Source of the DNA: Pseudomonadota bacterium
GTDB taxonomy: Bacteria; Bdellovibrionota_B; Oligoflexia; Oligoflexales; CAIYRB01
DNA: 56,237 bases
Reading direction: 5' to 3'
Assembly: GCA_031416315.1 (NCBI GenBank)
Contig: JANOTL010000160.1
Coordinates: 1-56,237, forward strand
The first letter of the stretch is position 1. Each line of letters starts with the position of its first letter. This document shows, piece by piece, positions 15,901-42,001 of this stretch. The notes under the pieces are model-generated. The model did no database searches, was not told where the DNA came from, and saw only the letters and a program-made list of their open reading frames with translations. Both the position numbers and the translations under genes were made by a program.

Positions 15901-16449
15901 GCCGTCGCCATTCTCGCCCAGACCTTGGCCCCGGCCAGGCCAGCCGAGCTCGGCGCGCCGCTCGGCTCCTACCCGCGAACGATCGACGCGGCTTATGCCG
16001 AGGTCCTTTTCCATGGGGCGGCCATGCAGCTTTTGGCCGGCGTCACCGGCTTGGACGAGACGGGAATCGCCGCCGCCCTGGCACCAGAGCCCTTGCCCTC
16101 GGCCTGGCTAGCATCGCCACCGCGCGCCACGTGGCTCACGGCCCCCGGACCGCTCGACGCGGCGTTTCAGCTGATGATCCTCTGGAGCGCCGAGACGCTC
16201 GGCGCCGTCTCCTTGCCCGCGGCCGTGCGGCGCTTTCGTCGGCATGCGGGCGGGAAGCCCGTCGCGATGCGCCTCAGGCTGCGGCAGACCGAGGCGGCGC
16301 GCGCCGTCGCGGACGTCGAGGCGCTCGATCTCGAAGGCCGCGCCGTCCTCACGCTCGAAGGCATCGAGGCGACGATCGAGCCGAGCCTCGCCGCCGCGTT
16401 CCGGCGCAATCGCCTCGCAGCGCCAGAACGGGGCGCCGCACGTCCATGA
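9964..16449 (+). CDS. pfaA: PfaA-type PUFA synthase subunit: KS-MAT-ACP-ACP-KR-DH
   Basis: KS: WQENSFPGLLGNV, DAACASS, EGHGTGTKVGD, GHTKAAAG. AT: FPGQG, GHSFGE, AFHS. Two ACPs: LGIDSIKRVEI twice (about 13450-13650 and 13750-13960). KR: TGGARGVT, YAVANE. DH: HVLNGRAVLPAA. The start overlaps the pfaD stop (TGATG). Confidence 0.95.
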   Translation: MAGTEIAIVGMGCLFPQADGVAAFWERVRRGADAIGAVPATHWRPEDFYDQDKKAPDRTYARRGAFLSPYAFNPLEWGIAPNDLEATDTSQLLGMVVAQMALTDAGYGPKRAFDKSRVSCIMGITGTLELVIPLGARLGHPIWKKALADAGVEAGVAADVMDRIQSSYVGWQENSFPGLLGNVVAGRIANRLNLGGTNCVVDAACASSLSALHLATMELAAGRSDMVVTGGVDTFNDIFMYMCFSKTPALSPTGDARPFAADADGTILGEGLGALILKRLADAERDGDRVHAVIKGIGTSSDGKGQAIYAPSASGQERCLRSAYAEAGVEPASIDLVEGHGTGTKVGDAVEVSALRSVFGAAPDGAWCALGSVKSQIGHTKAAAGVAGLIKAALALEHAVIPPTIKVSLPAEGLAGSALYLPREARPWLRRGTAPRRAAVSAFGFGGSNFHCVLEEAPERLAFPVQRYGRSGEAKVLIVPFGEVSVEALKTAVRAEMARGEADWQELRRMAAGRRRSFERDAEERLVLVVAREDRETFGALLERALRLLDGESFAASGANKILRGSGAPLAAAQVAVMFPGQGAQATGMLRELACDYPEFRQSLEAANRAVQELAPDARRLSDDLYPTDVWSEDDRARAEARLTATERAQAAIGAVSAGAWAVLRGLGLEPGLAFGHSFGELCALHAAGVLDLEGLARAAAQRGAAMAAGGGELGTMLAVSAAKLRVEAALAAACLTDVVIANDNAPEQVVLAGTRAAIEAARAELAKQKFACTSLNVSAAFHSPLVAGAATPFAAFLAGEPFAQARIPVLANTTAAAYPEAPEAMRTLLAQQLAEPVRFVELVLAAYDRGARLFVEIGPGARLCGLVRRILPERGARVTALDAKGEGGGTLALARLVAELAAAGVALALERWDAAAAEIEAPPAVTKKAMTVPLAGANFVRPERRVGRPPVVKAAAPVPAAPSTRSIATSTPVASSPQPVVAKVVPRAAAVPASSSVPVPHFPTTVGPIMSNEQTQLTRETVLALQKIQEQSAQLHREFLEGQRETQRLLVELLSGAPSQGRGLAAGAAQARLPAAPVLQAQAPFPVATRPAPVAPQTVSPSVPYAPPIRTGSTATPPRGAPQAESSFAPSPAPRPTPAAKPVPSAATPPKTSGSAATAATILAVIAEKTGYPTDMLELGMSLEGDLGIDSIKRVEIFSEMSARLPAAAAIPTEELTRLKTLAEIVAAVDQGAPEGESQTAYTPAAPPSAAPADGMATSAAALIAVIAEKTGYPTDMLELGMSLEGDLGIDSIKRVEIFSALQETLPEARALPPEILSAAKTLAEIVAALDALGGRAAPNAAVAKAEALHPATPSAPRAAAPVDRYAVDVTTLTAPPAARRPEGDDAPFFVVASQDDFLAGALTAELGARGFKASLLPLASAWDTLALPPRLAGLILVAPETAPSDARALVPAFAAARRLLPQLAASTGGAAAVFATVTRLGGRFGIDSGPDINDSLFTAGLGGLAKSAAWEWPALRCIALDVEPEARAAAAVADELTTARPASRPVEIGWAYGVWHTTALTRVDLMAEEAREVPQITPGALVVVTGGARGVTAAVADRLALLYQPHFLVLGRSAAPEIEPEGLRGLVAEPEVKNALVRANGGRMTPRELKEAYDRVVADREMRATFAKLEGHGAQVTYRAVDVRDRAAVAQKIAAAQALHGPVRMLVHGAGVLHDRLIVNKTPEQVEAVLGTKLEGLAALLAAVDPDALDALVLFASSTGRFGRKGQADYAVANEALAKLAWSFQRRHPRCRTLALDWGPWDGGMVHSGLKKLFASEGIETIGLNAGAACVTAELQRRSDGPAELVILGAGSRAPGPSLVAEPEASAETPREAFRLPVSVAELPVLADHVLNGRAVLPAALMMEFLALAATQRHPGLTLAGFEDFRVLRGLTLGAEERVALIGRAGPLRREADGLFVTTVELVSEATDSGPLRHHAHAVAILAQTLAPARPAELGAPLGSYPRTIDAAYAEVLFHGAAMQLLAGVTGLDETGIAAALAPEPLPSAWLASPPRATWLTAPGPLDAAFQLMILWSAETLGAVSLPAAVRRFRRHAGGKPVAMRLRLRQTEAARAVADVEALDLEGRAVLTLEGIEATIEPSLAAAFRRNRLAAPERGAARP

Positions 16450-19400
16450 GCTCCGCCGCGCCGCGCATCGCCATCGTCGGAATGGCGCTCCGGTTCGCCG
16501 GGGCGTCCGAGCCCGAGGCCTTCGCGCGTCTCGTCGAGGGCGGCGTCGACGCCTCGAGCGGCGTGCCGGACGGACGCTGGCCTTTGGCCCCCGAGGCGGT
16601 CGTCACCGCCGGTGCCTTGGGAATTCCGGGTCGCGTTCCCGCGGCTCGCGGCTATTTTTTGCGACCGGAAGCGAGCGACTGTGCGGACCTGCGCGGCCTC
16701 GGGCTCGATCCTCTGTTCGGCCTGACGCTCGCGGTCGGGCGTGAAGCCTACGCCTCGTGCAGAAACGCCGACCTCGATTTGCGCCGTGTCGGCCTCATCC
16801 TCGGCAACTTGGCTTTGCCGACGACGGCCTCGTCGCAGCTCGCCCAGGAGCTCGTCGGCGCCGCGTTTCTCGAGCGCGCGCACGGTCTCGCGCCTTTGGA
16901 CGCGCTCGGCGTCGCGCCCGCGAATGCTGCAGTCGCGGGTCTGCCGACCTTACTCCTAGCTCGCAAGCTGGGCCTCGGCGGGACGTGCTTCGCCCTGGAT
17001 GCGGCATGCGCGTCGACCCTGTACGCCTTGCGTTTCGCGATGCGTGAGCTGAGCTCCGGCCGCGCGGACGCGATGATCGCGGGCGGCGTCTCGCGTCCCG
17101 ACCCTTTCTACACGCAAATGGGCTTCGCGCAGCTGAGGGCCCTGGCGCCCGACGGCGTCAGCCGCCCGTTCGACGAGCGCGCGGGCGGTCTCGTGGTCGG
17201 CGAGGGCGCGGGGATGTTCGTGCTGAAGCGTTTGGACGACGCCCTGCGCGAAGGCGACCGCATCCTCGGCTTGATCACCGGGGCGGGTGTCTCCAATGAT
17301 CTCGACTCTGGCATGATGGCGCCGAGCAGCGAGGGCCAGCTGCGCGCGCTGCGCGACGCCTATCTCGAGGCCGGCTGGGATCCGCGCGACGTCGACTTCA
17401 TCGAGGCGCACGCGACCGGCACGCCGCTCGGCGACCAGGTCGAGGTGGAAAGCCTAAAATCCCTGTGGCGCGAGGCGGGCGGAGCGATCGGGAAGCATGT
17501 GCCGCTCGGCTCCGTCAAGGCGAACGTCGGTCACCTCTTGACCGCAGCCGGCGCCTCGAGCTTAGCGAAGGCGCTCTTGGCGATCGAGCGCAAAACGGTC
17601 GCACCGACGGCGAACTTCACCGCGCCGGCCGCGCGCCTCGCGCTCGAGGACGGACCGTTCGAGATCCTACGCGAGCCGCGGCAGCTGGAGAAAAGGGGGC
17701 CGCTGCGCGCCGCGATCAGCGGCTTCGGCTTCGGCGGCATCAATGCGCATCTCTTGATCGAAGAATGGTGCGGTCAGACGGAGCGCGCGCCGGCTCGGAA
17801 AGCGCCGGCCCCCCGTGAGGTGGCGATCGTCGGCGTCGGTGCGAGCACGGGACGCTTCGAGAGCTTCGCGAACCTCGCGACCGCGCGAGCGGTCCCGCCG
17901 CCGCCCTGGATGGGGCTCGAGGAAACGCGGACGTTCGCGAATCTGATCGGGACTTTGGCGCCGGCGCTGGCGGTGCACGAGCTCGAGCTCGACGCCGCGG
18001 CCTTGCGCTTGCCGCCGGCGGAGCTGCAGGATCTCAATCCGCAGCAACTCCTTGCCCTCGCCGCGGCGACCGAAGCGGCGCGAGCGGGCGGGCTCACGCC
18101 GGGCGGCAGGCAGCCGAGGGCCGGCGTTTACCTCGGAATGGCGCTGGACGGGGCGACGAACCACTTCAGTTGCCGGTTCGCGCACGGGGATGCCGCGAGC
18201 TTCGTGCCGGAGATGACGGCGACCCGGGTCATGGGCAATCTCGCGAGCGTGGCGGCCAGCCGGATCGCGCGCGCCTTCGGGCTCGGCGGCCTCGGCATCG
18301 CGGTCGCGGCGGAAGCGGAATCGGGGCTGCGGGCGCTTGGGCTTGCGGTCGAGGCGATTCGGCGGGGCGAGCTGGATCTCGCGATGGCGGGGGGAGTCGA
18401 CTGCGCGGCGCAGTACCTGAATGCGCAAGCACGCAGACTGGGAAGAGGCGGGGAGGCGAAGACGACCGAGGACGTGGCGGTGATGCTCGTCTTGAAGGAT
18501 TTGGCAGGCGCGCTGAGGGATGGTGATCGGGTGCTGGGGGTGATTGGCGTCGACGTCGGCGAAGACGCCGACGCTCGCGTCGGACCCGCCGTCCGTCTCG
18601 ATGAGGATTTCGAGCACGGCGCAGCGACCGGTCTCCTCTCGATCGCGCGCGCCGTATCGATGTTGAGCACGGCGCTACTGCCGCATGGCGATTACTGGCT
18701 TCGCGATCGGATCGCAGGACCGCGCGAGCTCTGCCTCTCCGGATTCCGGCTGCGAGAAGGTCCCGGTCAGCACCCGCATTTTGCCGCGCCGTCCCTGGCG
18801 CGACAGGCCCTCTTTCTCGTCGCCGCGGCGACGCGGCCAAAGCTCGTGCTCGCCGTCGAGTCGCTTTTCGCGACGCTCGAGGCGTCGCCGCTCGCGGCCT
18901 GGCCGCGGCTGGCCGCGGATACTTGGGAGGATGCGACCCTCGCCGCGGCGACCGGGGGAACGCGGTGGCGCGCCGCATTCCATTGGTCGGGCGACCCGGA
19001 TGCCGTCGCGTCTTGGCGCGCGGCGTCGTCGGCCGGCCGCGTCAGCGACGAGGCTTGCGGCTTTTGGCTTGCGGACGGCGCGGACGATCCGCCGCGGCTG
19101 GCTTTCCTTTTTCCCGGCGCGGGAAGCCACTATCAGCAGATGGGGCGCGAGCTCGCCTCGGCATTTCCCGCGTTGATGGAGCGGCAGGATCGCGAGTCCG
19201 CGCGCTTGCGCTCGCAGTGGAGCCCTGAATCGTTCTGGAAGGACGGGGCGGCCCAGCCGGAGATGGTCGAGGCGCTGGGCGGACCGTGCGCGCTGGCGGC
19301 GCTCGTCGTCGACACCTTGGCGGCGCTCGGCGTCGCGCCGGATGCGACGATCGGCTATAGCCTCGGCGAGTCGGCGGCCTTGCTCGCGATGCGCGCGTGG

Positions 19401-22400
19401 CGTGGGAGAGACGAGGTCTACGAGCGCCTCGTCGCCTCGACGATCTTCACGACCGAGCTCGCGGGGCCGATGCTCGCCGCGAGGCGGTATTTCGGTCTGG
19501 CGCCGAACGCGCCGCTCTCTTGGGCGAATTTCCTGGTGCGCCGCGGTCAAGCCGAGGTGCGCGCGGCCCTCGAGGGCTCGAGTCGGGTCTTCTTGAACAA
19601 CGTCAACTCGCCGCAAGAGTGCATCATCGGCGGCGACGCGAGTGAGGCGCGTGCCGTGCTGCGCAAGCTCGGGCACGCCGAGTTCGAGTTGCCGCGCATT
19701 CCGGCGCTGCATTGCCCGGTGGTGCGCGAGATCGAGGACGAGTTCCAGAGCTTTCACGAATTTCCGCTGACGGCGCCTGCCGGCGTCACCTTCTACGGAG
19801 GCGCGCAGGGCGAGCCGATCCCGCTTTCGAGTCGGGGTGCGGCCGAGGCGATCCTCGCGCATGCGTGGCACGGGGTGGATTTTCCCAAGATGATCGAGCG
19901 CGCATATGCCGACGGCGTGCGCGTCTTCCTCGAGATGGGACCGGGGGCCGGACTGACGCGCCTCGTGCGCGAGATCCTCGGCTCGCGACCGTTCGTCGCC
20001 GCGAGCGTATGCCCGCGGGAGGGGCAGGAGCGTGCGGGACTTTTCGGCGCGCTCGCGTTGGCGTTTGTGCACGGACGCTCCTTGCGGGTCGACCGTGGGC
20101 TCCTGGTCGCGGCGGAGAGGCCGGTGGCGAGGGCGGGGGTTACGGTGCGGTTTGGAGCTCAGGCGGGGGGTAAGTTCGTGGCGGTGGCGGGGCCGGAAAA
20201 AGCCGAACGGGTGGATGCGATGACCGATCAGATTGTCGAGGCGGTGGTGGCGGCGCGGGCGGCTACGGCGGCGGCGCATTCCAGCTTTTTGGCGTCGACG
20301 CGGGAGATGGTGGGGGCAGTGGGGGTGGCTTTGAAGTCGAGCGCGAGCGCGACGACGTCCACGCCTACGTCTTCGTCTGCGACTGAGTTTCCGGTCGGGA
20401 TTCCCGTTTGGGACCTGACGAACCGTCCGCCCTTTAACCCCGACCCGGCCTGGCTCGACTTCTCGGCGTGCCAAACGCTCGCGCGCGGGCGCCTCGGCGA
20501 CGTGCTCGGCCCCGATTTCGCCGCGGTCGACGCGTTTCCCGTGCGCGTGCGCTTGCCCGACGGGCCGCTCCTCCTTTGCCACCGCATCATGAGCGTGGAG
20601 GCGGTGCCGCGCTCGCTCGGCTCGGGAACTTTGATCACCGAGCACGACGTTCACGCCGACGCCTGGTACCTCGACGATGGCCGAATTCCGACGTGCGTCG
20701 CCGTCGAGGCCGGGCAGGCGGATCTCTTCCTCTCCGCTTACCTCGGCATCGATTTCAAGACGGAGGGCCGCGCCGTTTACCGCCTGCTCGACGCGGTCGT
20801 CACCTTCCACGACCGCTTGCCGACGCCGGGCACGACCATCCGTTACGAGATTAAGGTCCACTCCTTCTTCGACCAGGGCGAGACGACGCTCTTTCGCTTC
20901 TCGTTCGAGGCCAAGGTCTCTGGGAAAAAGCTGATCACGATGGAGCAAGGCTGCGCCGGATTCTTCACTGCCGCTGAGCTAGCCGCGGGGCGTGGCATCG
21001 TGAAGACCAGTCTCGATCTGCGGCCGGTACCCGGAAAAGTGACGGGCGACTATGCGCCGCTCGTCTCGATGGCTCATGAGCGCTACGACGATTCCCAGCT
21101 CGACGCGCTGCGCCGCGGCGACTACGTCGCGTGCTTCGGCGAAGCTTTCGCCGCGCTCGCGCTGGAGACGCCGAAAACGGTGCCGGACGGCATGTTGCGC
21201 CTCGTTCACCGCATCCTAGAGCTCGATCCTCAAGGCGGTCGCTACGGCCTCGGCATGATCCGCGGCGAGGCCGACATCCGACCCGACGATTGGTTCCTCA
21301 CCTGCCATTTCGTCGATGATCAAGTGATGCCGGGCACCTTGATGTACGAATGCTGCAATCACACGATGCGCATCCTTCTGATGCGCGCGGGCTGGGTGGG
21401 CGAGGCTTGCGACTTGCCGTGCGAGCCGCTCGAAGGCGTGGCGAGTCGCTTGAAATGCCGCGGCCAGGTGCTCGCCGGCACGCAGAAAGTGGAGTACCGC
21501 ATCGAGATCAAAGAGATTGGCTACGGCCCCGACGCCTATGCGATCGCCGACGCCTTGATGTACGCCGACGGCAAGCCGATCGTCGAGATTCTCGACATGT
21601 CGCTTTGCCATCGCGGTCTCACCAAGGAGCGGGCCGCGGCCGTTTGGCGCAAGGTCGCGCCGAAGCCTGCGCTCTACGACAAAGACCGGATCCTCGCGTT
21701 CTCGAGCGGCAATCCGTCCGAGGCTTTCGGCGAGCCCTACCGGATCTTCGACACGCCGCGCGGCGCCCAGCGCAAGATCGCGCGCTTGCCGCGTCCGCCT
21801 TATCAATTCCTGGACCGGATCACGGAGACCGCCGCCGAGCCGTGGAAGCTCGAGGCCGGCGGCCGCATCGAGGCGCAGTACGACGTCCCGCCCGACGCCT
21901 GGTATTTCGCCGCTTCCGGCGCGGCGGCTTCAATGCCGTTCGCGATCCTCCTCGAGATCGCGTTGCAACCGTGCGGCTGGTACTCGGCCTACATGGGCTC
22001 GGCGCTGGCGAGCCCCGTCGACCTCTCCTATCGCAACCTCGGCGGCAAGGGCGTCCAGCATCGCGCCGTCACGCCGGAGACGGGAACGCTGACGACTTCG
22101 GTCGATGCGTCGAAGGTGTCGCACTCCGCCGGGATGATCATCCAGAGCTTCGCGTTTCGCGTGACGGCCGCGGCCGGTCTCGTCTACGAGGGTGAGACGA
22201 TGTTCGGCTTTTTCACGAAGGACGCGCTCGCCCAGCAAGTAGGCCTGCGCGGGGTCACCGCGCCTGCGTCGCTCGACGTGCCCGCCGTCGCGCCCTATCC
22301 CGATCGCCCGCAGCTGCCGCGCGCGCCGATGCTCATGGTGGACGAGATCGTGGCCTTCTCGGCGGAACGGCTGCACGGCAGAAAGCGCGTCGATCCCGCG

Positions 22401-22718
22401 GAATGGTTCTTCGAGGCGCATTTCTTCGAGGATCCGGTGATGCCGGGCTCGCTCGGCCTCGAGGCGTTCCTCCAGCTCCTGATGCTCGCGGCGGCCGAGC
22501 TATGGCCCGACGCCCGAGGCTTCCAGGCGGTGGCCCCCGGCGCCGAGCACTCGTGGACCTACCGCGGCCAAGTGATCCCGCGGAACGGCCGGACCGACGT
22601 CCTGGCCGAGGTGACGGCCGTAGATCATGCGGCGCGCCGTCTCACGGGATCGGGCACCCTCCTCGTCGACGGGCTGCCGATTTATGCGATGGAAGGCTTC
22701 GCCATCACGGCGCTTTGA
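16446..22718 (+). CDS. pfaC: PfaBC-type PUFA synthase subunit: KS-CLF-AT-FabA-like DH domains
   Basis: KS: DAACAST, EAHATGTPLGD, GHLLTAAG. A Cys-less second KS-like (CLF) segment. AT: GYSLGE. FabA-like dehydratases WFLTCHFVDDQVMPGTLM and WFFEAHFFEDPVMPGSLG. ATGA overlap with pfaA. No C-terminal acyltransferase domain. Confidence 0.92.
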   Translation: MSSAAPRIAIVGMALRFAGASEPEAFARLVEGGVDASSGVPDGRWPLAPEAVVTAGALGIPGRVPAARGYFLRPEASDCADLRGLGLDPLFGLTLAVGREAYASCRNADLDLRRVGLILGNLALPTTASSQLAQELVGAAFLERAHGLAPLDALGVAPANAAVAGLPTLLLARKLGLGGTCFALDAACASTLYALRFAMRELSSGRADAMIAGGVSRPDPFYTQMGFAQLRALAPDGVSRPFDERAGGLVVGEGAGMFVLKRLDDALREGDRILGLITGAGVSNDLDSGMMAPSSEGQLRALRDAYLEAGWDPRDVDFIEAHATGTPLGDQVEVESLKSLWREAGGAIGKHVPLGSVKANVGHLLTAAGASSLAKALLAIERKTVAPTANFTAPAARLALEDGPFEILREPRQLEKRGPLRAAISGFGFGGINAHLLIEEWCGQTERAPARKAPAPREVAIVGVGASTGRFESFANLATARAVPPPPWMGLEETRTFANLIGTLAPALAVHELELDAAALRLPPAELQDLNPQQLLALAAATEAARAGGLTPGGRQPRAGVYLGMALDGATNHFSCRFAHGDAASFVPEMTATRVMGNLASVAASRIARAFGLGGLGIAVAAEAESGLRALGLAVEAIRRGELDLAMAGGVDCAAQYLNAQARRLGRGGEAKTTEDVAVMLVLKDLAGALRDGDRVLGVIGVDVGEDADARVGPAVRLDEDFEHGAATGLLSIARAVSMLSTALLPHGDYWLRDRIAGPRELCLSGFRLREGPGQHPHFAAPSLARQALFLVAAATRPKLVLAVESLFATLEASPLAAWPRLAADTWEDATLAAATGGTRWRAAFHWSGDPDAVASWRAASSAGRVSDEACGFWLADGADDPPRLAFLFPGAGSHYQQMGRELASAFPALMERQDRESARLRSQWSPESFWKDGAAQPEMVEALGGPCALAALVVDTLAALGVAPDATIGYSLGESAALLAMRAWRGRDEVYERLVASTIFTTELAGPMLAARRYFGLAPNAPLSWANFLVRRGQAEVRAALEGSSRVFLNNVNSPQECIIGGDASEARAVLRKLGHAEFELPRIPALHCPVVREIEDEFQSFHEFPLTAPAGVTFYGGAQGEPIPLSSRGAAEAILAHAWHGVDFPKMIERAYADGVRVFLEMGPGAGLTRLVREILGSRPFVAASVCPREGQERAGLFGALALAFVHGRSLRVDRGLLVAAERPVARAGVTVRFGAQAGGKFVAVAGPEKAERVDAMTDQIVEAVVAARAATAAAHSSFLASTREMVGAVGVALKSSASATTSTPTSSSATEFPVGIPVWDLTNRPPFNPDPAWLDFSACQTLARGRLGDVLGPDFAAVDAFPVRVRLPDGPLLLCHRIMSVEAVPRSLGSGTLITEHDVHADAWYLDDGRIPTCVAVEAGQADLFLSAYLGIDFKTEGRAVYRLLDAVVTFHDRLPTPGTTIRYEIKVHSFFDQGETTLFRFSFEAKVSGKKLITMEQGCAGFFTAAELAAGRGIVKTSLDLRPVPGKVTGDYAPLVSMAHERYDDSQLDALRRGDYVACFGEAFAALALETPKTVPDGMLRLVHRILELDPQGGRYGLGMIRGEADIRPDDWFLTCHFVDDQVMPGTLMYECCNHTMRILLMRAGWVGEACDLPCEPLEGVASRLKCRGQVLAGTQKVEYRIEIKEIGYGPDAYAIADALMYADGKPIVEILDMSLCHRGLTKERAAAVWRKVAPKPALYDKDRILAFSSGNPSEAFGEPYRIFDTPRGAQRKIARLPRPPYQFLDRITETAAEPWKLEAGGRIEAQYDVPPDAWYFAASGAAASMPFAILLEIALQPCGWYSAYMGSALASPVDLSYRNLGGKGVQHRAVTPETGTLTTSVDASKVSHSAGMIIQSFAFRVTAAAGLVYEGETMFGFFTKDALAQQVGLRGVTAPASLDVPAVAPYPDRPQLPRAPMLMVDEIVAFSAERLHGRKRVDPAEWFFEAHFFEDPVMPGSLGLEAFLQLLMLAAAELWPDARGFQAVAPGAEHSWTYRGQVIPRNGRTDVLAEVTAVDHAARRLTGSGTLLVDGLPIYAMEGFAITAL

Positions 22719-31748: not shown

Positions 31749-31776
31749 TTGACCGGGCCGTCGTGGGGGCTAGACT
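31749..31776 (+). promoter_or_regulatory. Candidate sigma70-type promoter for dps
   Basis: TTGACC-16 nt-TAGACT, followed by a GGAG RBS at 31801 and the ATG at 31815. Confidence 0.4.
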
Positions 31777-32312: not shown

Positions 32313-33473
32313 TCAGGCCCCTCGTGCCAATCCCCGATGCGGCGCCTCGGCGCTGCGGAAGAGATCGCCGGCGGCCCACGAGCGCGAGAGGTGCAGCGAT
32401 TCGCTTAGGCGCAGCGCGGCGACAAGCTCGGCGGCCGAGAGCGGCGCGATCTTTTGCGCGAGGCCGAAGCCGAAGGCGCCGTGCCCGCCGGCGCGGTTGA
32501 TCTTGTGGTGCTGGTCGATCCAAACGGCAGCCTGAGCGCCGCCAGGAGCCTCGGCGACGAGCTTGGCGTATGACGATTGATCGGTCGTCACGTCGACGCC
32601 CTCGAAGGTGTCGAGCGCCAAGGCGAAGCCTAACGCCGAGCCCGATGCCGCCTCGATCAGGGCGCCCATCATCGCCGCGTAGGCCGGCAAGAGCGGCAGA
32701 ACGCCGGGCGAGGCGATCCCGAAGGCTTTTAGAGCTTTCTCCATCAAAGCATCGTGACCGCGCTCTTCGACGAGGAAGCGCGCGACGTCGTCGGCGAGCT
32801 GCGGCAGGACGCTGAGCGCCGGCGTCACCGCCGCCTCGCAGCGCGAGGTGATGAAGTGCGACTGACGCACCAGGGTCGCGATCAGGCGGCGATGCTCGGC
32901 TTCCCCTCGCGCCGCCACGGCCGTCACGACGTCCCTCAGAACGCGGGGTTCGTTCTTGTCGAGCTGGCAACACCGTGCGAGCCGGCGCGCATGCGTGAAC
33001 GCCGCGACCGCGTCGAAGGTCTCGCCGCCCGCGCGGGCGGAGCGCGACAGCGCTTCGGCGACTGGCCATTGCCAAGCGTGCGTCGCGCCGCGCGCGGCGA
33101 TCTCGCGTGTGATGCTCTCCGGAGCGCCGAGGCGGCGGGCGCCGTCGGCGATGGCCGCAAAGAGGGGCGCCGCGGAAGGCTCGTCGCCGGCAGACTCCGC
33201 GCAAGACGCAAGAGCCTCGCCCTTCGTCCCAGGCTCGAGGTAGACCATCGGATAGGCGGCGAAGTTGGCGAGCGCCGCCTGGGCCGCGTGCGGCACTTCG
33301 GCGTTCGCGTCACCACGGGCTACGTCGTCGAGATGAGCGAGGAGCACGCCGACCGCGTCGGCGAGCTGGCCGCCACATTCGGCTTCGACCGTGATCCAGG
33401 GCGTCGACAGGGAGAAGCGGCGTGCCGGCTCGATCCAACGACCTTTGAGCTCGGGGTAGGGACGATAGAGCAT
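32313..33473 (-). CDS. Heme-oxygenase-like (TenA/PqqC/CADD-type) iron-dependent redox enzyme with an extra N-terminal domain
   Basis: Helical C-terminal half with QSHFIT, FLVEERGHD (ExxH), LDTFEG and QHHKINRAGGH as candidate metal ligands. About 170 extra N-terminal residues. Confidence 0.6.
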   Translation of the reverse strand: MLYRPYPELKGRWIEPARRFSLSTPWITVEAECGGQLADAVGVLLAHLDDVARGDANAEVPHAAQAALANFAAYPMVYLEPGTKGEALASCAESAGDEPSAAPLFAAIADGARRLGAPESITREIAARGATHAWQWPVAEALSRSARAGGETFDAVAAFTHARRLARCCQLDKNEPRVLRDVVTAVAARGEAEHRRLIATLVRQSHFITSRCEAAVTPALSVLPQLADDVARFLVEERGHDALMEKALKAFGIASPGVLPLLPAYAAMMGALIEAASGSALGFALALDTFEGVDVTTDQSSYAKLVAEAPGGAQAAVWIDQHHKINRAGGHGAFGFGLAQKIAPLSAAELVAALRLSESLHLSRSWAAGDLFRSAEAPHRGLARGA

Positions 33474-33513
33474 GGCGGAGGCTTTCGCGCGCGGGAGGAG
33501 CGGCTCCGAAGGC

Positions 33514-33828
33514 TCAGAGCTCGTCGACGGCTATGTCCATGGGTGCTGTTACCATGATCACGCGGATCGTCCCTTTGGCGCAAGTGCGCTCGGCGTCGGC
33601 TTTCGTCACGGCGTCGCTCGTATACAGGGTGGGGTTGGCGACGGCGTACTCGAGCGTCTGCTTCATGAGCTGAGGCTGGACGCAGTAGAAGCGCTCGAAG
33701 GCGACGCTGCTCACGGCGTCTTGCGGGCACTTCGGCGCCTCCATGGCCGGGATGCCGCTGGCCGTGCCCGCCACTAGCGCTGCAAGGGTGGCCAAGCCAC
33801 GGCCGAGGCGAAGGGTCTTTGGATTCAT
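33514..33828 (-). CDS. Small exported 3-Cys protein (104 aa); candidate precursor peptide
   Basis: GAGG RBS; signal-like MNPKTLRLGRGLATLAALVAGTA; C-x14-CVQ...CAKGTIRVIMVTAPMD. Confidence 0.7.
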   Translation of the reverse strand: MNPKTLRLGRGLATLAALVAGTASGIPAMEAPKCPQDAVSSVAFERFYCVQPQLMKQTLEYAVANPTLYTSDAVTKADAERTCAKGTIRVIMVTAPMDIAVDEL

Positions 33829-33841
33829 TGGAAACCTCGTG

Positions 33842-34357
33842 TTACAGCTCTACTGGGCCGTTGATCGGATCGCTGGGCACTTGCACGACGACGATCCGCA
33901 GGAAACCCTGCGGACAGTCCGTCGAAGGCCCCAGCTTCACCTTCTCACGCGTCTTCGCGTCGCTGCCGAGCGTGTCGTGGAACGCCGCCGCAGAGACCGC
34001 CTCGACGCATTGCACGACGTTGCTCTCGGCGCCCGTCGCGAGCGGCTCCTGGCAGGTGTCCACCGGCGTCGGCGGATTCGGCGTCGAAGTCGTGCTCCCT
34101 GTCGTTCCGGTCGTTCCGGTCGTCCCGGTCGTCCCGGTCGTCCCGGTCGTCGCCGTGCCCCCGGTCGTCGCCGTGCCCCCGGTCGTCGCCGTGCCCCCGG
34201 TCGTCGCCGTGCTCCCGGTCGACGTGCCCGTGCCCGTCTCCGAGCCGGTACCCGAGCCTTTCCCCGAGCTCTTGCCCGAGTCCTTCTTCTCTGCTTGTGT
34301 GCCGCACGCGCCCAGAAGCGCGAAGAGAGATACAGCGAGGAGGCGTGAGTTGCTCAT
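33842..34357 (-). CDS. Lipoprotein (171 aa) with a Gly/Thr linker and a C-terminal 3-Cys domain paralogous to the downstream small protein
   Basis: Lipobox LLGAC; GT-rich linker; C-x14-CVE...CPQGFLRIVVVQVPSD. Confidence 0.75.
   Translation of the reverse strand: MSNSRLLAVSLFALLGACGTQAEKKDSGKSSGKGSGTGSETGTGTSTGSTATTGGTATTGGTATTGGTATTGTTGTTGTTGTTGTTGSTTSTPNPPTPVDTCQEPLATGAESNVVQCVEAVSAAAFHDTLGSDAKTREKVKLGPSTDCPQGFLRIVVVQVPSDPINGPVEL
34101..34218. repeat. Coding tandem repeats: 9-bp unit (GTCGTYCCG) x5 and 18-bp unit (GTCGTCGCCGTGCCCCCG) x4
   Basis: Directly visible; encode (GTT)n and (GGTATT)n in the lipoprotein linker. Confidence 0.9.
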
Positions 34358-34542: not shown

Positions 34543-36021
34543 ATGCGCCAACGCTTGAGCCTGGCGGCCGTCGCATTGTTCACGAGTCTCACGCTCGCCG
34601 CGTGCAAGACGCCCGGCTCGGCCGCGCGGCTACGCGCGGCCGACGGCAGCCCGGAGGCCGCTTCGGCGGCGACCGCGGCGCAAGCGCGCGAGGCGGTGAG
34701 GAAAGCACTGCATTATTTGTTCGAGACGCAAGTGAAGGAGCCGGACCAGCTCGCGGGCCCCGTGCGCCTGGAAGGCGAGTGGGCCTCCTACGTCCGCGGC
34801 AGCGTCGCCGACGACAGCAATCTGCAGGCGCTCTACGATTCGAACGCCTTCGTCCCAATGTTCGTCACCTATCCCTTCTTCCTGATGGACGACAAGGGCT
34901 TGCCTGCCGGCGGCCAGAAGCTCAGCGAGATGAGCCGCCGGACGCTCAAGCTCCTGCGCCGCTGGTATCTGGCAAAGAACGGCGAGGTCAACTTCTGGCC
35001 GACCATCGCCGGGTTTCACGGCCCGCAGCAGATCGCCGAGGCGCTGCCGTTCGCGCGGCTCCTCGGGCCGATCTTCGACATCGCCAACGACGCCGACGAC
35101 ACGGCGGTCTACTACGTGACGGCGCTGAAGATGGATCCGGGATCGGTCGACAAGGACTTTCCGAAGCTCTTCGCCGGCTGGCTGGATAAGGACCGGGCGC
35201 GCCGCGACGAGCGCGAGGCCGCCTGGAAGCCGGACGGGACCGGCGCCTACATGACCTGGATGAGCGACGAGGACAAGCCTGGAAACAAGCATCCGATCGC
35301 CTTCAAGCTGGCCAACAACGTCGACTGCCTCGTCCTCGGCAACGTGCTTTACGCGGTCGGCTTGAACAGGAAGCTGAACGGCGGCGCCGCCGAGCCGACG
35401 GGCTACAAGGAAAGCTGCGCGCTCGCGCGCGAGGTGATCGAGAAGAAATCCTACCCGGCCTGCGCGCTCTACTACCCGCCGCAGTGGCTTTTCCCGTACG
35501 CGGTGAGTCGTGCCTTCCGCGACGGCGGCAACGACTGCCTGCAGCCGAGCATGAAGCCGTTAGCACAAGAGATTTTGGCGGCGCAAAAACCGGACGGCTC
35601 ATGGGACGACGTCGGCGTCTACGCCAACCTGCCTGCCGACGTGCAGTCGAAAAACCCGGAGTTCCGCGGCGACGCCCGCGTCTACTCGACCGCGCTCAAC
35701 GTCTCGACCTTGGCGAACGTCGGCGTCGCGGAATGGCCGGATCCGGCCGCGGCGCGCGCCGCGATCGAGAGCGGCGTCCGCTTCCTCGTCGCCAACGTCG
35801 TGAAGGACGACGGCAAGGAGTTCTGGCAGGGGGGCGTTTTCTTTTCGTCCTCCTACCAGACGGTGGCGCGCTGGAAATCAAGGCCATACACGACCGCGGT
35901 CGTCCTCGAGGCCATGGTGAAGTACCTGCGCCATTACGGTGACGGCGACGAAGGCGGCGTCTGGAAGCTGACCGAGAACGACGTGCCGAGCAGCTGGCTC
36001 ATCGGGGAGGTGACGCCATGA
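34543..36021 (+). CDS. Lipoprotein with a prenyltransferase/squalene-cyclase-like alpha/alpha barrel (DxDDTA and QW-like motifs)
   Basis: Lipobox LTLAAC; ANDADDTAVYY; NNVDCLVLGNVL; AQKPDGSW; AIESGVRFL. Confidence 0.6.
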   Translation: MRQRLSLAAVALFTSLTLAACKTPGSAARLRAADGSPEAASAATAAQAREAVRKALHYLFETQVKEPDQLAGPVRLEGEWASYVRGSVADDSNLQALYDSNAFVPMFVTYPFFLMDDKGLPAGGQKLSEMSRRTLKLLRRWYLAKNGEVNFWPTIAGFHGPQQIAEALPFARLLGPIFDIANDADDTAVYYVTALKMDPGSVDKDFPKLFAGWLDKDRARRDEREAAWKPDGTGAYMTWMSDEDKPGNKHPIAFKLANNVDCLVLGNVLYAVGLNRKLNGGAAEPTGYKESCALAREVIEKKSYPACALYYPPQWLFPYAVSRAFRDGGNDCLQPSMKPLAQEILAAQKPDGSWDDVGVYANLPADVQSKNPEFRGDARVYSTALNVSTLANVGVAEWPDPAAARAAIESGVRFLVANVVKDDGKEFWQGGVFFSSSYQTVARWKSRPYTTAVVLEAMVKYLRHYGDGDEGGVWKLTENDVPSSWLIGEVTP

Positions 36022-36698
36022 AGAAGCTCCTGAGCTACGCGGTGGCGGCCTTGACTGCCGGTTCCCTTGCCGTCCCGGAGTCCCGCGCGCAAGGCCTGCT
36101 CACGCCCGGTGTCGCGTACGTCTTCTACACCACGAGCGCGACGGACAAGATCCCGCACGTGAACTGGCGCGTGGCCTCGGCCTTCTCGGCGGGCCTCGCG
36201 AGCTTCCTCTTCGACGTGCGCGTGCTGAAGAAGCTGCCGGCGGAGCGCCTCGAGGCGACGCTTAAGGCCGACGTCGACACGATCTCCTCGTCGCACTATC
36301 TGAAACGCCTCCTCATCAGCATCGAGCGCGCGCTCCTGGCCGAAGCGGCCAAGATCCACGCGGAGCATCCGGACGAGGACTTCAACGCGAGCTTCGAGTC
36401 GATCATCGGCAAGAGCACGTTCGCCTGCGAGCTTCCGAGCTGCGGCGTGCTGGAGCTGAAGAAATTGGTGTCCCTGATGATTCCGCCCGAGGCCGCGGCC
36501 TACTGGACCGGGGACGCCGAGGCCAAGGCGCTGAAGACCCTCATCGACAACCTGCCGCAGGCGCGTATATATGGGTACGCGGCGGGCGAAGGCGAGACGC
36601 GCATGGGCGCTCTGCCTTCGCTGATGCGCCGCCGGAAGTACGACGTGAGCTGCGCGGTCGGCAAAGCTTGTGTCGGCAAGGGCAAGGGCGAAGGCTGA
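36018..36698 (+). CDS. Secreted hypothetical protein
   Basis: Signal-like MKKLLSYAVAALTAGSLAVPESRA; GGAGG RBS; ATGA overlap with the upstream gene; four Cys. Confidence 0.75.
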   Translation: MKKLLSYAVAALTAGSLAVPESRAQGLLTPGVAYVFYTTSATDKIPHVNWRVASAFSAGLASFLFDVRVLKKLPAERLEATLKADVDTISSSHYLKRLLISIERALLAEAAKIHAEHPDEDFNASFESIIGKSTFACELPSCGVLELKKLVSLMIPPEAAAYWTGDAEAKALKTLIDNLPQARIYGYAAGEGETRMGALPSLMRRRKYDVSCAVGKACVGKGKGEG

Positions 36699-37666: not shown

Positions 37667-40240
37667 ATGAAGCTTCGACGGCGATGGAAAGTAAGTAAGG
37701 GCTGGACCTGGCTCTTGCGTCTCGGTGGCGCCTTGGCGGTCAGCTTTCTTTTGCTCTTGGCGACGCTCACCGCCGTCGACGCCCTCAGCCTGCGCATGCC
37801 CGAGCCGGGCGAGGTGGTGGTGACCGAGTACATGCGGCTCCGAAGCGTGGCGACGGGCGCGCCAGCGGCGGCCCGCTGGACCCCGCTCACCGGGATGTCG
37901 GGGGCGATCGTCTGTGCGGTGCTGAAGGCCGAGGATCACCTCTTCTTCCGCCACCGCGCTTTCAACTGGTCCCAACTCGAGAAAGCCGCGCGCCTCGCCT
38001 TGTCCGGAACCGGCTCGATGGGCGGGAGTACCATCACGCAGCAACTTGCGCGAAACCTCTTCCTGTCGCCTGAGCGCTCGATCTGGCGCAAGCTGCGCGA
38101 AGCGGCGCTAGCCGTGGCTCTCGAGGTCCGCTTCTCGAAGCTCGAGCTCCTGGCCTATTACCTGAACGTCATTGAATGGGGCGATGGCATTTGGGGCGCG
38201 GCCGGGGCGGCGCAAGCTTATCTCGGCAAGTCGCCCGACGCCGTCGAGCTCGAGGAGGCATTGCTGCTTGCGAGCTTGATCGCGGCTCCCCGCACGGCCC
38301 CGGCTTCGCAATTGGATCGAATGGGTAAGGTCTATGAGCGCGTGAACCATCAGTTTCTGGTGGCGCGGCTGACGACGATGAAGCGTTGGCGCGAGGCGAG
38401 CGGTTCGTGGGGGGAGATCAGAGCGGCGCTGTCTTCTGGCAAGCCACTCGAGAAAGCGGCCTCTAGGCTCTCCATGAAGGCTCCGGCTGGCATTCCCATT
38501 CAAGCCGTCGGAACGGAGTGCGGACTTCAGTCCGAGATCGCGAATCACCAGCGTTTTCAGAACATGAGCGGGCAGGCGACGGCGCCAGGGGATCCTTCGC
38601 GAACGGCCATTGAGCGCACCCTCCTCACGCCGAGCTTGTTTCCGGTCCGCCTGTCTCACGATCGGACGAAGCTGCTTCTGAAGGAATTTGAGCGCGAGAC
38701 GTTCTCGCTGTTGGTTCGAGACGCGACCACCAGCGAGGTCTTGCACCGTGACGACTCCATGGAGACGCAGCTCTCGCCAGCCTTCAACCCATCCGGAGAC
38801 GCGCTGGTCTTCACGGAATTCGATCCGTCCACGCGCGCGTATTTTCTCTATCTAGCCGACATCGGCAGGCTCGGTCGCTCGAGGCTGCCGGCACCTCCGA
38901 GCCGTAGCGCGCCGCCGATCATTTGGTCGCCGACCGGAGCGAGCCTCGCTTACGCGCGCGTGGACCCTCGTACGCTTCGACGTCAGCTCCACGTTCTGAG
39001 CATTCGCGACGGCATACGGTTGGCGCCCCTTGCGGCGCCGATGTCCTCGACGGGCGGCTTCGCCTGGCATCCGGACGGCGATCGCCTCGCGACCATCGAC
39101 TTCGAGCGACCGGGCAATGTGACGATCTGGTCGGTCGCCGGCGTGCGCCTTGCTGCATTTACGGTGAGCGACGGGCAATGCCGCTCCGTGCATTGGCAGG
39201 GCGACCCGGATGAGATTCTCGTCGCTTGTCGCGACGTTCAGAGCGAATACTTCGTGCTCTACAGCGTGCGGCCGGACGACGGATCGGTCACGCTCAAAGC
39301 GAAGGCGGACGGTGACATCAGTGGGCCGTCCCGCCTTCCGAAGGGGCAAGGATTCACGTACCACGTGACTTACCGCGGCGACACGGTGCCTTGGATCGCG
39401 GATGAGGCAGGACCGCGACGACTCGGCGCTTTCGAGGGGTCGGCGCTCATCGCGAGCATGGACCGACGCACGGCGACGGCGAGCGTCATTCATACCGGTC
39501 GCCTCCTCCCGCCGCGACTGGTCGACGTGGCGTTCGCGACGGGACTGGAATCGCGAGTCGTGTTCGAGAGCGGGCCGAGAGCTAAGCCGGAGCTCGAAGC
39601 CGAAGCCGTCTCGATCCCAGTCAACGGGCTCGAGGTCCCTGGCTTCCTGTGGAAAACCCCGCAGCCACCGCCGGAGCGCGCAGGGATCGTCCTCGTGCAT
39701 GGAGGGCCCGAGGCGTTCGTGGCTCCGGTGTGGGGGCCGAATAAAGTTCTCATCGCCGAGCACGGAGTCGATTTGCTCGCCGTCAACTTTCGCGGCTCCA
39801 CGGGATACGGGCATCGCTTCGAGGCCTCAGGGAAGGTCGCCGAGCAGGTCGAGGACGTCGGCGCGGCGGTCGCTTTTCTGGAGAAGACGCGCGGAATTCC
39901 GCGTTCCAAAATCCTCCTCTTCGCGCATAGTTACGGCGCGATGGTCGTCGCCGAAGCGCTTCACGGTACGCCGGACCTCGCAGGCGCCGCCGCGCTCCTC
40001 GGCTTGGCCGGTGTCCCGCGACTGATGCCGCCGCGCCCTTTTCCGGGGCGCCTGATCGTATTCCACGGGACTGCCGACATCGCTCAGACCTCGGCGCAGG
40101 CGCGCGCGGCGCTTGCCGGCATTTTGCCTCCCGCAGACCGTCTTCTCTGGCGCGACGTCGTGGGCGAAGGCCATACGTTTCACCGCAATGCCTCCCTCGC
40201 CGAAGTTCATGCTGCGATCTTCGCAGCGCTCGGACGCTGA
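37667..40240 (+). CDS. Fusion protein: TM + GT51 monofunctional transglycosylase (MtgA-like) + TolB-like propeller + S9-type serine peptidase
   Basis: GT51: AEDHLFFRH, GGSTITQQLARNLFL, RKLREA, SKLELLAYYLNVIEWG. Propeller: SPAFNPSG, WSPTG, AWHPDG. Peptidase: VHGGP, NFRGSTGYG, AHSYG, HGTAD, GEGHTF. Confidence 0.85.
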   Translation: MKLRRRWKVSKGWTWLLRLGGALAVSFLLLLATLTAVDALSLRMPEPGEVVVTEYMRLRSVATGAPAAARWTPLTGMSGAIVCAVLKAEDHLFFRHRAFNWSQLEKAARLALSGTGSMGGSTITQQLARNLFLSPERSIWRKLREAALAVALEVRFSKLELLAYYLNVIEWGDGIWGAAGAAQAYLGKSPDAVELEEALLLASLIAAPRTAPASQLDRMGKVYERVNHQFLVARLTTMKRWREASGSWGEIRAALSSGKPLEKAASRLSMKAPAGIPIQAVGTECGLQSEIANHQRFQNMSGQATAPGDPSRTAIERTLLTPSLFPVRLSHDRTKLLLKEFERETFSLLVRDATTSEVLHRDDSMETQLSPAFNPSGDALVFTEFDPSTRAYFLYLADIGRLGRSRLPAPPSRSAPPIIWSPTGASLAYARVDPRTLRRQLHVLSIRDGIRLAPLAAPMSSTGGFAWHPDGDRLATIDFERPGNVTIWSVAGVRLAAFTVSDGQCRSVHWQGDPDEILVACRDVQSEYFVLYSVRPDDGSVTLKAKADGDISGPSRLPKGQGFTYHVTYRGDTVPWIADEAGPRRLGAFEGSALIASMDRRTATASVIHTGRLLPPRLVDVAFATGLESRVVFESGPRAKPELEAEAVSIPVNGLEVPGFLWKTPQPPPERAGIVLVHGGPEAFVAPVWGPNKVLIAEHGVDLLAVNFRGSTGYGHRFEASGKVAEQVEDVGAAVAFLEKTRGIPRSKILLFAHSYGAMVVAEALHGTPDLAGAAALLGLAGVPRLMPPRPFPGRLIVFHGTADIAQTSAQARAALAGILPPADRLLWRDVVGEGHTFHRNASLAEVHAAIFAALGR

Positions 40241-40369: not shown

Positions 40370-42001
40370 ATGGCGATCGACCGGGACCGCGCCGTCGCGC
40401 TGGCGCAAAAAACCGTCCTCCTCGGCGCGGTCGCGGGGCCGGCACTGCTCGCCTCCCGGCAATCCACGCCGTTCATGGGCGCCGCCATCGGCTTTTTCGA
40501 TGTGAAGATCCTTGCTTTCGGCTTAGCCGGGGCGTTCGCGGCGCTGCTTCTGGCTTGGTCGCGACCGACGACCGAGGCGCCGACCGTCCGTCGCACGGAC
40601 CTCGCGCTCTTGGGCTTCATCCTGTTTGGAATGATCGGCTGGGCCTTCGGAGCGCCTCGGCAAGCGTTCCCGACCGAGTGGCTCGCGGGCTTCGCCGGGA
40701 TCGCCTTCATCGCGGGCTTGACGGCGCGAGTGGTCGAGCGACCGAAGGGTGAGGACTTCGTCGTCGGCGTCGTCCTCTTGACAGCCGCCGCCGTGACGCT
40801 CGTCACCTTGTTGGAGGCGGCGGGCTGGCTCGTCGTCCCCGACGTGTCCCGCCGCCCCGTCTCGACGCTCGGGAATCGAAACCTCGTCGCGCTGTACGTC
40901 GCGATCTCGGTGCCGGTTTTGGTCGCGCGGCTTTGCGCTAGGGTGCGCTTGCTCGACGTGGTGCTCCTGGCGGCGATTACGTTGGTGATCATCATTTGCC
41001 GATCGCGCACGGTGTGGATCGCGACCGGAGGGTTCGTGCTTGCGGTCTTTGCGGCCGACGCGTGGCGGCGCTTTCGCGGGCAACCCGTTTTCGCGCCCTT
41101 CGGCGGCCCGGCCCTCGTGTTGGCGCTCGGTCTTGGGCTCACGGTTTACAACGCGGCATCGTGGAGTGGACTGCGCTGGTCCGAAGCCTCGCCCGCCCTA
41201 ACTACACTCGGCCGCATCGTCAGTTTAGACAGCGGCTCAGGCCAAATCCGTATGCAGCAACATCGCGCGGGCTTCACTCTGTGGCGTGAGCATCCCCTCC
41301 TTGGCGTTGGTCCGACCGGCTGGACCGAGGCGGCGCCGCGTGTCCTGACGCCGCCGCCGCTCGACGACCGCGAGTGGTTAGCCCGTATCGTCCCGCCGAA
41401 CTCCGACTTCGTCCGACTCGCGGCCGGCCATGGTCTGCTCGGGCTCCTTGCGTTTGCGGCCATCCTGGTCGCGGTCGTGCGCGCGGGGTGGCGCAGCCGC
41501 ACTATGATGGGCCGGGCCAGCGCCGGCGCGGTGGCGTTGATGACGGTGATGGCTGCGGGGGACACGCTCTTCTTTCGCGCGCCGATGATGGCGCTTCTCG
41601 GCCTGTTCGTCGGCGTGACCCAGACCTCGGCGCCGATGGTGGCCTTGACGCGTTCAGCAGCTCGCATGGCGCGACCGGGGCTCGTCCTCGTAGCCGCGCT
41701 CATGGCCGTCGCTGCCATCCACGTCTATGACGCGTCGCGGGCTCTGCATACGGCCACGACGGTCGTGGCATTTGAAAGGGCGTGGTCGCGAAGACCCATG
41801 CCACTCGAGGGCCTGATGATTTTGCGCTTATTGCCCGTCAACCCGCAGGCCTGTACGGTATCGGCCCCGCTGATGGGCGGGCTGACGAGGTACGTCCCGC
41901 AAGACTTGATCCTGCAGAGAAGAGTCGAAGCCTGCGCAGGGGCCACCGCCGATCAGATGCGCCAGCGGACATTTGCCGGCGATCTCCGAGACGCGCCTTG
42001 A
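40370..42001 (+). CDS. O-antigen ligase-family membrane protein
   Basis: AAGGA RBS before the ATG at 40370; STLGNRN, CRSRTVW, SGQIR...HPLLGVGPTGW and PNSDFVRLAAGHGLLG. Confidence 0.75.
   Translation: MAIDRDRAVALAQKTVLLGAVAGPALLASRQSTPFMGAAIGFFDVKILAFGLAGAFAALLLAWSRPTTEAPTVRRTDLALLGFILFGMIGWAFGAPRQAFPTEWLAGFAGIAFIAGLTARVVERPKGEDFVVGVVLLTAAAVTLVTLLEAAGWLVVPDVSRRPVSTLGNRNLVALYVAISVPVLVARLCARVRLLDVVLLAAITLVIIICRSRTVWIATGGFVLAVFAADAWRRFRGQPVFAPFGGPALVLALGLGLTVYNAASWSGLRWSEASPALTTLGRIVSLDSGSGQIRMQQHRAGFTLWREHPLLGVGPTGWTEAAPRVLTPPPLDDREWLARIVPPNSDFVRLAAGHGLLGLLAFAAILVAVVRAGWRSRTMMGRASAGAVALMTVMAAGDTLFFRAPMMALLGLFVGVTQTSAPMVALTRSAARMARPGLVLVAALMAVAAIHVYDASRALHTATTVVAFERAWSRRPMPLEGLMILRLLPVNPQACTVSAPLMGGLTRYVPQDLILQRRVEACAGATADQMRQRTFAGDLRDAP

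Follow-up and report, generated by a model that had tools for sequence, protein, structure and literature searches.

Introduction

The question raised by this locus is why the gene of a probable cytoplasmic oxidase stands beside the genes of two small exported cysteine (Cys) proteins, and what the enzyme could do to them. The three open reading frames (ORFs) lie in a row, with gaps of 13 and 40 bp, on the minus strand of a 56,237-nt stretch (the window) of contig JANOTL010000160.1 (GCA_031416315.1), from a Pseudomonadota bacterium placed by GTDB in Oligoflexales CAIYRB01. An earlier note on this DNA had read them as a system resembling the peptides that are ribosomally synthesized and then post-translationally modified (RiPPs), in which an enzyme of heme-oxygenase-like (HO-like) fold, perhaps carrying a RiPP recognition element (RRE), would act on the two proteins before export, with Cys as the suggested target. 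The answer reached here is a different target: the enzyme (P0001), a predicted heme-oxygenase-like dimetal oxidase (HDO), probably modifies the C-terminal residue of each adjoining exported protein (P0002 and P0003), in the cytoplasm and prior to secretion. On the evidence of a conserved C-terminus, a persistent gene pairing and a predicted complex, we put the probability of this reading at roughly 0.68.

The three genes and their products

33842..34357, minus strand: exported partner 1 (P0003), 171 aa; lipobox LGA-C18, Gly/Thr tether, three-Cys domain (C102, C117 and C148 in the translation), free tail ending in PVEL
33845..33850, minus strand: C-terminal Glu-Leu of P0003, from the translation
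33514..33828, minus strand: exported partner 2 (P0002), 104 aa; Sec-like N-terminus, three-Cys domain (C34, C49, C83), tail ending in VDEL
33544..33564, minus strand: RVIMVTA, P0002 residues 89-95, the follower strand in the predicted complex
33517..33522, minus strand: C-terminal Glu-Leu of P0002, conserved in the family, with Leu104 placed in the metal pocket by the predicted complex
32313..33473, minus strand: enzyme (P0001), 386 aa, predicted HDO family, no signal peptide seen
33228..33473, minus strand: N-terminal, weakly RRE-like domain of the enzyme, residues 1-82; four short strands, two helices and one strand, with an invariant PW at 25-26
32346..33014, minus strand: predicted HO-like helical domain of the enzyme, residues 154-376, with E237, H240, D241, E291, H322, N326 and H331

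The orientation and spacing of the genes, the Cys spacings and the Glu-Leu ends of both small proteins could be read directly from the ORFs and their translations, as the earlier note had given them. The GC content at third codon positions is 0.83-0.85 in the three genes, similar to that of the neighbouring dps gene, and the three ORFs look coding. Signal peptides were assigned by eye together with a hydrophobicity filter, and on this basis P0003 (lipobox Cys18) again appears as a lipoprotein on its Gly/Thr tether and P0002 as the bearer of a Sec-like signal. Pfam and NCBIfam gave no name to any of the three proteins, the sole match being a sub-threshold mucin hit on the tether, and a plasmid search found no match.

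Fold and putative metal ligands of the enzyme

The AlphaFold2 model of P0001, for which 18 homologues served as input, has a predicted local distance difference test score (pLDDT) of 91.3. When this model was compared by VIA with known structures, 3dde stood first (Z 15.6, root-mean-square deviation (rmsd) 3.3, 218 aligned residues), followed by CADD (15.0) and HrmI (14.9), the HO-fold matches covering residues 154-382; Foldseek placed HrmI, UndA, FlcD and SznF among the top rows, but all at E>0.001. Judged from the predicted model, P0001 has the HDO fold, a bundle of seven helices, as had been supposed from the sequence.

The enzyme profile retrieved 487 clusters at E≤1e-3 (236 at E≤1e-30), and 135 near-full-length members among the best 150 of the 487 clusters listed were aligned. 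Residues E237, H240, E291, H322, N326 and H331 are all kept in 131 of these 135 homologues, so that the putative ligands conserved include three His and two Glu, the canonical motif being three His and three carboxylates; position 241 is Asp or Glu in 117 members. Together with the model, this conservation suggests that P0001 is likely a diiron oxidase.

The family escapes naming by Pfam and NCBIfam almost entirely: PF14518 was matched by 20 of the 135 aligned members, and no DUF692 TIM-barrel match was found when all of them were scanned with the two databases. In the PDB the 135-row profile had MboA as its only sequence match (E 0.016), the single P0001 sequence had none, and a profile of the clade whose partners end in Gln-Leu (QL) did not match MboA. 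The ESM Atlas led with a score of 0.92 to an 89-member Bdellovibrionota cluster and next to PF14518/TenA leads, and gave no usable match for a partner; in a word-indexed protein search nothing came up beyond the query itself and two near-copies of a member already aligned. One candidate locus (L054, in G060) was dropped as an unrelated HDO, and fragments shorter than 290 aa were excluded from the enzyme tree. Four divergent homologues (L095-L098) keep the architecture, have lost the metal ligands and stand without a partner; they are possible pseudo-enzymes.

The exported partners share a scaffold and a C-terminus

In both P0002 and P0003 a C-x14-C spacing is followed after 30 or 33 residues by C-xx-G. 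BLASTP aligned the two at E 0.004 across the last 16 aligned residues, and their global score was equalled by 11 of 2000 shuffles; the similarity is modest, nevertheless above chance. A profile of 11 other partners, from which the window pair was excluded, scored both proteins above 200 of 200 shuffles, also after removal of the last 3 residues, and in leave-one-out scoring 16 of 19 partners exceeded all shuffles. The common scaffold claimed for the two proteins is thereby borne out. Since a profile of QL-clade partners fails to detect the E-type partners, a single scaffold across the clades is argued from the Cys pattern and the leave-one-out scores.

The shared pattern of the partners is C1, C2, C3-x-x-G, a strand, C4 and the tail, and in mature form they mostly carry 4 or 6 Cys. 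C4 is missing from the window pair, and the partner at locus L083 lacks both C2 and C4, which suggests that C1-C3 and C2-C4 are the likely disulfides. The odd Cys count, to which the earlier note had attached importance, is by this comparison a trait local to the window pair; speculatively, the free Cys of P0002 and P0003 could tether P0002 to the lipoprotein.

What the sequences of the partners conserve is their [E/Q]-Leu end, a feature that the earlier note had mentioned only briefly. Of 49 partners, 46 terminate in Leu, 1 in Ile and 2 in Gly (a list biased by a filter favouring Leu), and the penultimate residue is Gln in 31, Glu in 14, Asp in 2, Ala in 1 and Met in 1. The tail after the last Cys ranges from 4 to 23 residues while the C-terminal end stays fixed.

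Pairing of the enzyme with exported Cys proteins

The first nine other loci, listed unfiltered, all contain an adjacent signal-bearing Cys protein, with the ends VQL, SQL, TEL, VEL, IEL and VEI. In the tree an exported Cys partner ending in x-Leu/Ile stands beside 41 of 48 ligand-intact enzymes, 26 of them with Gln-Leu partners and 15, including the window, with E/D/A/M-Leu(Ile) partners; the remaining intact enzymes comprise one with two Gly-ending candidates, three with none and three on contigs too short. Counted among the 41 is the VEL-ending partner gene of locus L131 (G107:C8, near 41375-41524), which is broken by an in-frame TAG and may be a pseudogene or an assembly error. None of five ligand-less homologues has such a partner.

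Because the filter behind this table favoured Leu ends, the test was repeated blind to the C-terminus: of 49 intact loci, 28 have an exported Cys ORF ending in [EQD][LI] no more than 150 nt away, against 0 of 92 control ORFs, and 1.3% of 3024 host ORFs end in this way. Two held-out sets contained enzyme matches in 17 of 401 and 6 of 38 genomes. Fourteen loci were flagged as new and one, a repeat of L105, was dropped; a 4-Cys exported protein ending in QL (8 cases), EL or AL was present at 10 of the 13, and at three no partner was seen within about 4-6 kb. Searched against 131 genomes, the partner profile gave 21 matches, all 21 beside an enzyme gene, a result that is partly circular as the profile was partly trained on them. 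The co-occurrence predicted in the earlier note is thus found, and a co-location like that of modifying enzyme and ribosomal precursor in RiPPs is conserved.

The genes could also be neighbours by descent with no functional contact, and the loci are indeed related, with an orientation that varies (upstream, convergent, once divergent). The pairing persists, however, at 20-30% enzyme identity and through rearrangements, and partners are missing from the ligand-less homologues as from the control ORFs, so this explanation appears very improbable.

The enzyme is patchily distributed: within the host's phylum 23 of 131 genomes carry it, and within the host's family none of the 11 others. The carriers with a name comprise Oligoflexales, Bdellovibrionales, Bacteriovoracaceae, one Myxococcales and one gammaproteobacterial metagenome-assembled genome, and the family is mostly Bdellovibrionota where named; a cultured carrier is Oligoflexus tunisiensis Shr3 (L080). 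The host of the window has a second system (G000:C65, L099 6093-7590) with an enzyme of shortened N-domain and a 201-aa partner that combines a 6-Cys domain ending in VEI with a signal and a TPR-like region.

The predicted complex places the C-terminus at the metal site

The enzyme was modelled together with two Fe and P0002 residues 30-104. The complex passed, scoring 0.90, 0.89 and 0.90 against 0.49 for the best control; 116 of 157 solved pairs attain this mark, as do 2 of 215 mismatched ones, figures that apply only roughly here. Contact agreement is at least 61%, the pLDDT of the partner is 42-45, and confident binding is limited to P0002 residues 86-104. There RVIMVTA is predicted to run antiparallel to enzyme residues 26-31, in agreement with the beta-strand addition that had been expected of the R-V-x-x-V segment. 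Leu104 contacts T209, C212 and F290 in the model. The interface takes in each of the six ligand residues and, in its confident part, no partner Cys. The complex supports binding of P0002 by the enzyme, and with Leu104 at the metal site the likely target would be the C-terminus and not Cys, contrary to the first proposal.

The tail might nevertheless be a recognition handle only, with the enzyme oxidizing Cys or another internal residue in the manner of the MNIO enzymes of bufferins, whose precursors are, in the excerpts of PMC11626156, Sec-exported small proteins with 4-6 Cys that are modified on Cys; the Cys are also the other conserved residues of the present partners. We hold this to be unlikely, given that the Cys occur mostly in even numbers and change together as disulfide pairs would (as at L083), that the spacing between the last Cys and the C-terminus differs so widely while the end is fixed, and that the model brings Leu104, not Cys, to the metal site.

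The N-terminal domain

Residues 1-82 of P0001, modelled alone (pLDDT 91.3), fold into four strands followed by two helices and one more strand, where a PqqD-like RRE is a winged helix of three strands and then three helices. The best whole-domain matches are RREs, with PbtF at rank 1 (Z 5.0, rmsd 4.1, 69 aligned) and further PqqD (4.1), McbB and TbiB1, at scores within the background range; ThcOx, another of them, is the first Foldseek match at E 0.28, and over the first 57 residues PH domains fit about as closely. The domain may be called weakly RRE-like on the strength of these models: the RRE proposed in the earlier note is favoured by the ranking of the matches, while the low Z, the number of helices and the equally good PH domains speak against it. 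For the follower motif, the complex predicts the strand pairing of P0002, which would be a follower and not a leader; CxxGxxR[IV] was not found family-wide among the partners.

A protein glutaminase accompanies the Gln-Leu partners

Loci with Gln-Leu partners carry a gene of about 280 aa, mostly with a signal or lipobox by eye. Of 15 products tested all 15 match PF18626, 7 of them scoring higher than its curated cut-off; PDB 8z3i is matched at E 2.8e-8, and the Cys/His/Asp triad is invariant in 16 of these glutaminases. With the Chryseobacterium-type protein glutaminase (PF18626; PDB 2zk9, 8z3i) they share export and the triad motifs C-[FY]-x-RA, W-x-[FY]-H-[VM]-A and D, and they differ from it in their link with an HDO and with one adjoining Gln-Leu protein.

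Of 26 QL loci, 23 have the gene alongside, the three misses lying at contig ends, and of 16 non-QL loci (three of these with short flanks) none has it; in the held-out loci it was found at 7 of 8 QL loci and 0 of 2 others. The glutaminase profile had no match in the genome of the window or in eight other non-QL genomes, and a weak, distant one in a ninth. Glutaminase-like genes are also present without the enzyme in many genomes. The QL loci form a single derived clade (support 97/94, and 91 in a second tree); in the outgroups closest to it the gene is absent and the ends are M, A, E or EG.

The simplest reading of these sequences is that deamidation would restore Glu beside the modified end, from which it would follow that the C-terminal end is the working part of the product. 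A competing view is that the enzyme does modify the tail and the glutaminase is the target of the product, or cross-links it through Gln by transamidation or imide formation. A papain-like Cys/His/Asp triad could transamidate, PF04473 was weakly matched by 3 of 15, and the correlation with Gln comes from one clade. Against this, the best family and PDB matches are protein glutaminases, and in outgroups that lack the gene the penultimate codon is mainly one for Glu or Asp, and we regard such a role as rather doubtful. There is an analogy to pupylation, where a Gln variant of the terminal region travels with a deamidase and other lineages encode Glu directly; the comparison of Pup/Dop with the QL clade is an analogy only, as the enzymes are unrelated and Pup is a cytoplasmic degradation tag.

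At L074 (4101-4676) the glutaminase gene is truncated and the partner missing beside an intact enzyme, and its close relatives L075 and L076 have two partner copies each. At L110 (2-2608) a single frame of 868 aa, still open where the locus ends, unites a glutaminase domain with an S9 peptidase domain.

Proposed mechanism

Since the enzyme has no export signal and the partners have one, their contact would take place before export, as in bufferins and DAG-RiPPs. The unfolded and reduced precursor would present a beta-strand lying 9-15 residues before its C-terminus, to be bound as a follower by the RRE-like N-domain. The tail would then thread into the helical bundle, where the terminal carboxylate may bind iron as the peptide substrate does in MboA, and O2 activation would oxidize the terminal Leu. 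After Sec or lipoprotein export and formation of the disulfides, a compact domain, anchored or free, would display the modified tail; in the QL clade the exported glutaminase would convert Gln to Glu, leading to the same mature end.

For the reaction itself we tentatively favour oxidative decarboxylation (-46.005 Da) to a Glu-enamide, which may hydrolyse to a Glu-amide. It is preferred since oxidative decarboxylation is established HDO chemistry (UndA; excerpts of PMC13108848), since the position of Tyr82, the proposed base of MboA, is Phe in 98 of 135 members, and since the Gly-ending candidates fit a chemistry at C-alpha. Hydroxylation at C-alpha with amidation is a close but somewhat weaker candidate, and desaturation or hydroxylation of the side chain has an equal chance. 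The Gly-ending candidates belong to locus L116 (236-6848), which encodes two enzyme paralogues, one of them ligand-less, and two repeats of an ankyrin protein with an exported 4-Cys protein ending in SEG; in its intact enzyme, position 290 of the predicted Leu pocket is Met and position 233 is Tyr. As partners the SEG proteins are weak (their scores were reached by 0 and 1 of 100 shuffles); the L116 enzyme is sister to that of L140, whose partner shares the NxxGC scaffold.

The full scheme, which would define a new ribosomal product class and in which an RRE-fused HDO reads a follower strand and turns the C-terminal Leu of a folded, exported or lipid-anchored disulfide protein into a reactive or metal-binding cap, with the glutaminase completing the Glu-cap in one clade, seems to us slightly better than an even chance. 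The role of the product is weakly suggested to be that of a Glu-plus-cap metal ligand or a protease-directed warhead, which is speculative; proteases or a serpin stand beside four E/D/A-type loci checked, a frequency without a control.

Points against, and the plug alternative

Several observations weigh against modification of the C-terminus as proposed. The RRE match is weak (best Z 5.0), with two helices where an RRE has three. Asn replaces the canonical third carboxylate in 133 of 135 members, so that a diiron site is not assured; D/E241 could compensate in the manner of D90 in MboA. The complex score may owe something to RRE-peptide and HDO-peptide structures already familiar to the predictor, and the fold of the partner itself is uncertain in it. 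The first partner counts came from the Leu-favouring filter, the penultimate residue is not strictly Glu or Gln (Asp twice, Ala twice, Met once), and six intact enzymes are without a nearby partner (L074, L092, L093, L149, L158, L161). The QL loci being one derived clade, the link of Gln with the glutaminase is one event and not 23 independent ones. The Gly ends of the two possible L116 partners exclude side-chain desaturation there. No MboB-like redox partner is conserved in the loci; neither ATP-grasp ligases nor MboB were recognized among the neighbours read, where no profile search was aimed at them.

The Asn at the ligand position and the six enzymes without partner would also suit an arrangement in which the small protein is a regulator or plug, its tail filling the active site of an enzyme for small molecules, or in which the protein serves as a metal-gated export chaperone with no turnover, and most characterized HDOs do act on fatty or amino acids (excerpts of PMC13108848). 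The export signals of the partners, absent from the enzyme, would however make any contact transient, no small-molecule pathway genes are conserved across the loci, and a glutaminase tracking Gln fits a matured product. We therefore give this arrangement little credit compared with terminal modification.

Comparison with known systems

Among the closest known systems is MboA, the HDO of mangotoxin (ligands E86, H89, D90, E143, H172, D176, H181), which in the excerpts of PMC13185094 oxidizes the C-terminal residue of a tripeptide whose C-terminal carboxylate binds Fe1. MboA and the P0001 family share the HDO fold and the ligand spacing E-x2-H-D / E / H-x3-[D/N]-x4-H, with the unusual H-x3-D-x4-H of MboA and its additional Asp behind the first His included. 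MboA has about 250 aa and a ligase-made tripeptide substrate and needs the redox partner MboB, whereas in the P0001 family an RRE-like domain stands at the N-terminus, Asp176 is replaced by Asn and Tyr82 mostly by Phe, and the exported partners are encoded by genes.

About a dozen HDOs have been validated, nearly all on small molecules, and the ribosomal-peptide case cited in the excerpts of PMC13108848 is VarO. This HO-like protein of the thiovarsolin pathway desaturates, on genetic evidence, a residue of a ribosomal peptide product; it belongs to a YcaO/TfuA cluster with a repeat precursor cut to tripeptides, and the timing of its action, including whether it acts on the precursor, is stated to be unclear in the excerpts of PMC6511847, which describe no export signal, RRE fusion or C-terminal targeting.

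Bufferins (PMC11626156) and DAG-RiPPs (PMC13056109) follow a similar logic, as far as the excerpts tell: a cytoplasmic iron oxidase acts on precursors with Sec or lipoprotein signals that fold as small Cys proteins, there is an RRE-related partner (BufC), and C-terminal motifs also occur on secreted proteins containing TPR, with which the second system of the host (L099) may be compared. Their enzymes are TIM-barrel MNIOs modifying Cys; P0001 is modelled as a helical HO-type bundle, hence not as a DUF692 TIM barrel, with a fused RRE-like domain and a terminal Leu as predicted target.

In open PubMed Central (PMC) and bioRxiv literature we found no HDO-RRE fusion and no such cluster described, VarO being the single HO-like precedent among RiPPs that came up, and the main text of an RRE-mining paper (PMC12710340) contains no HDO terms. 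As far as this literature was searched, the enzyme family, its target and the deamidase module are undescribed, which agrees with the impression of the earlier note; the logic of exported RiPPs is itself known.

Other features of the window

The three-gene unit stops 21 bp short of the convergent dps gene, upstream of which a single sigma-70-like promoter was seen at 31749-31776 (plus strand); the dps gene converges on that of the enzyme. Divergent genes encode a predicted lipoprotein of 492 aa (34543-36021, plus strand) and a signal-bearing protein of 226 aa (36018-36698, plus strand), both without a Pfam, NCBIfam or useful PDB match and not seen at related loci. An ORF of 857 aa at 37667-40240 (plus strand) joins a transglycosylase domain to an S9-type hydrolase domain, and one of 2195 aa at 16131-22718 (plus strand) is presumably a PfaB/C-type polyunsaturated fatty acid synthase, judging from its sequence. 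At the non-QL loci L084, L087, L089 and L091 the adjoining genes encode a serpin, an S15 peptidase, a subtilase and an astacin, a frequency likewise without a control.

Significance

Protein glutaminases are known mainly as food enzymes, and if the proposed reading is true, the QL clade would provide one of them with a natural substrate. It would also be the first case of an HDO acting on a protein terminus, extending the chemistry of these enzymes to protein C-termini, and the 19-residue binding segment would represent a portable tag for C-terminal protein chemistry. For the bacteria that carry these loci it would mean a new way to chemically finish secreted proteins, the substrates of which are named by the genome itself.

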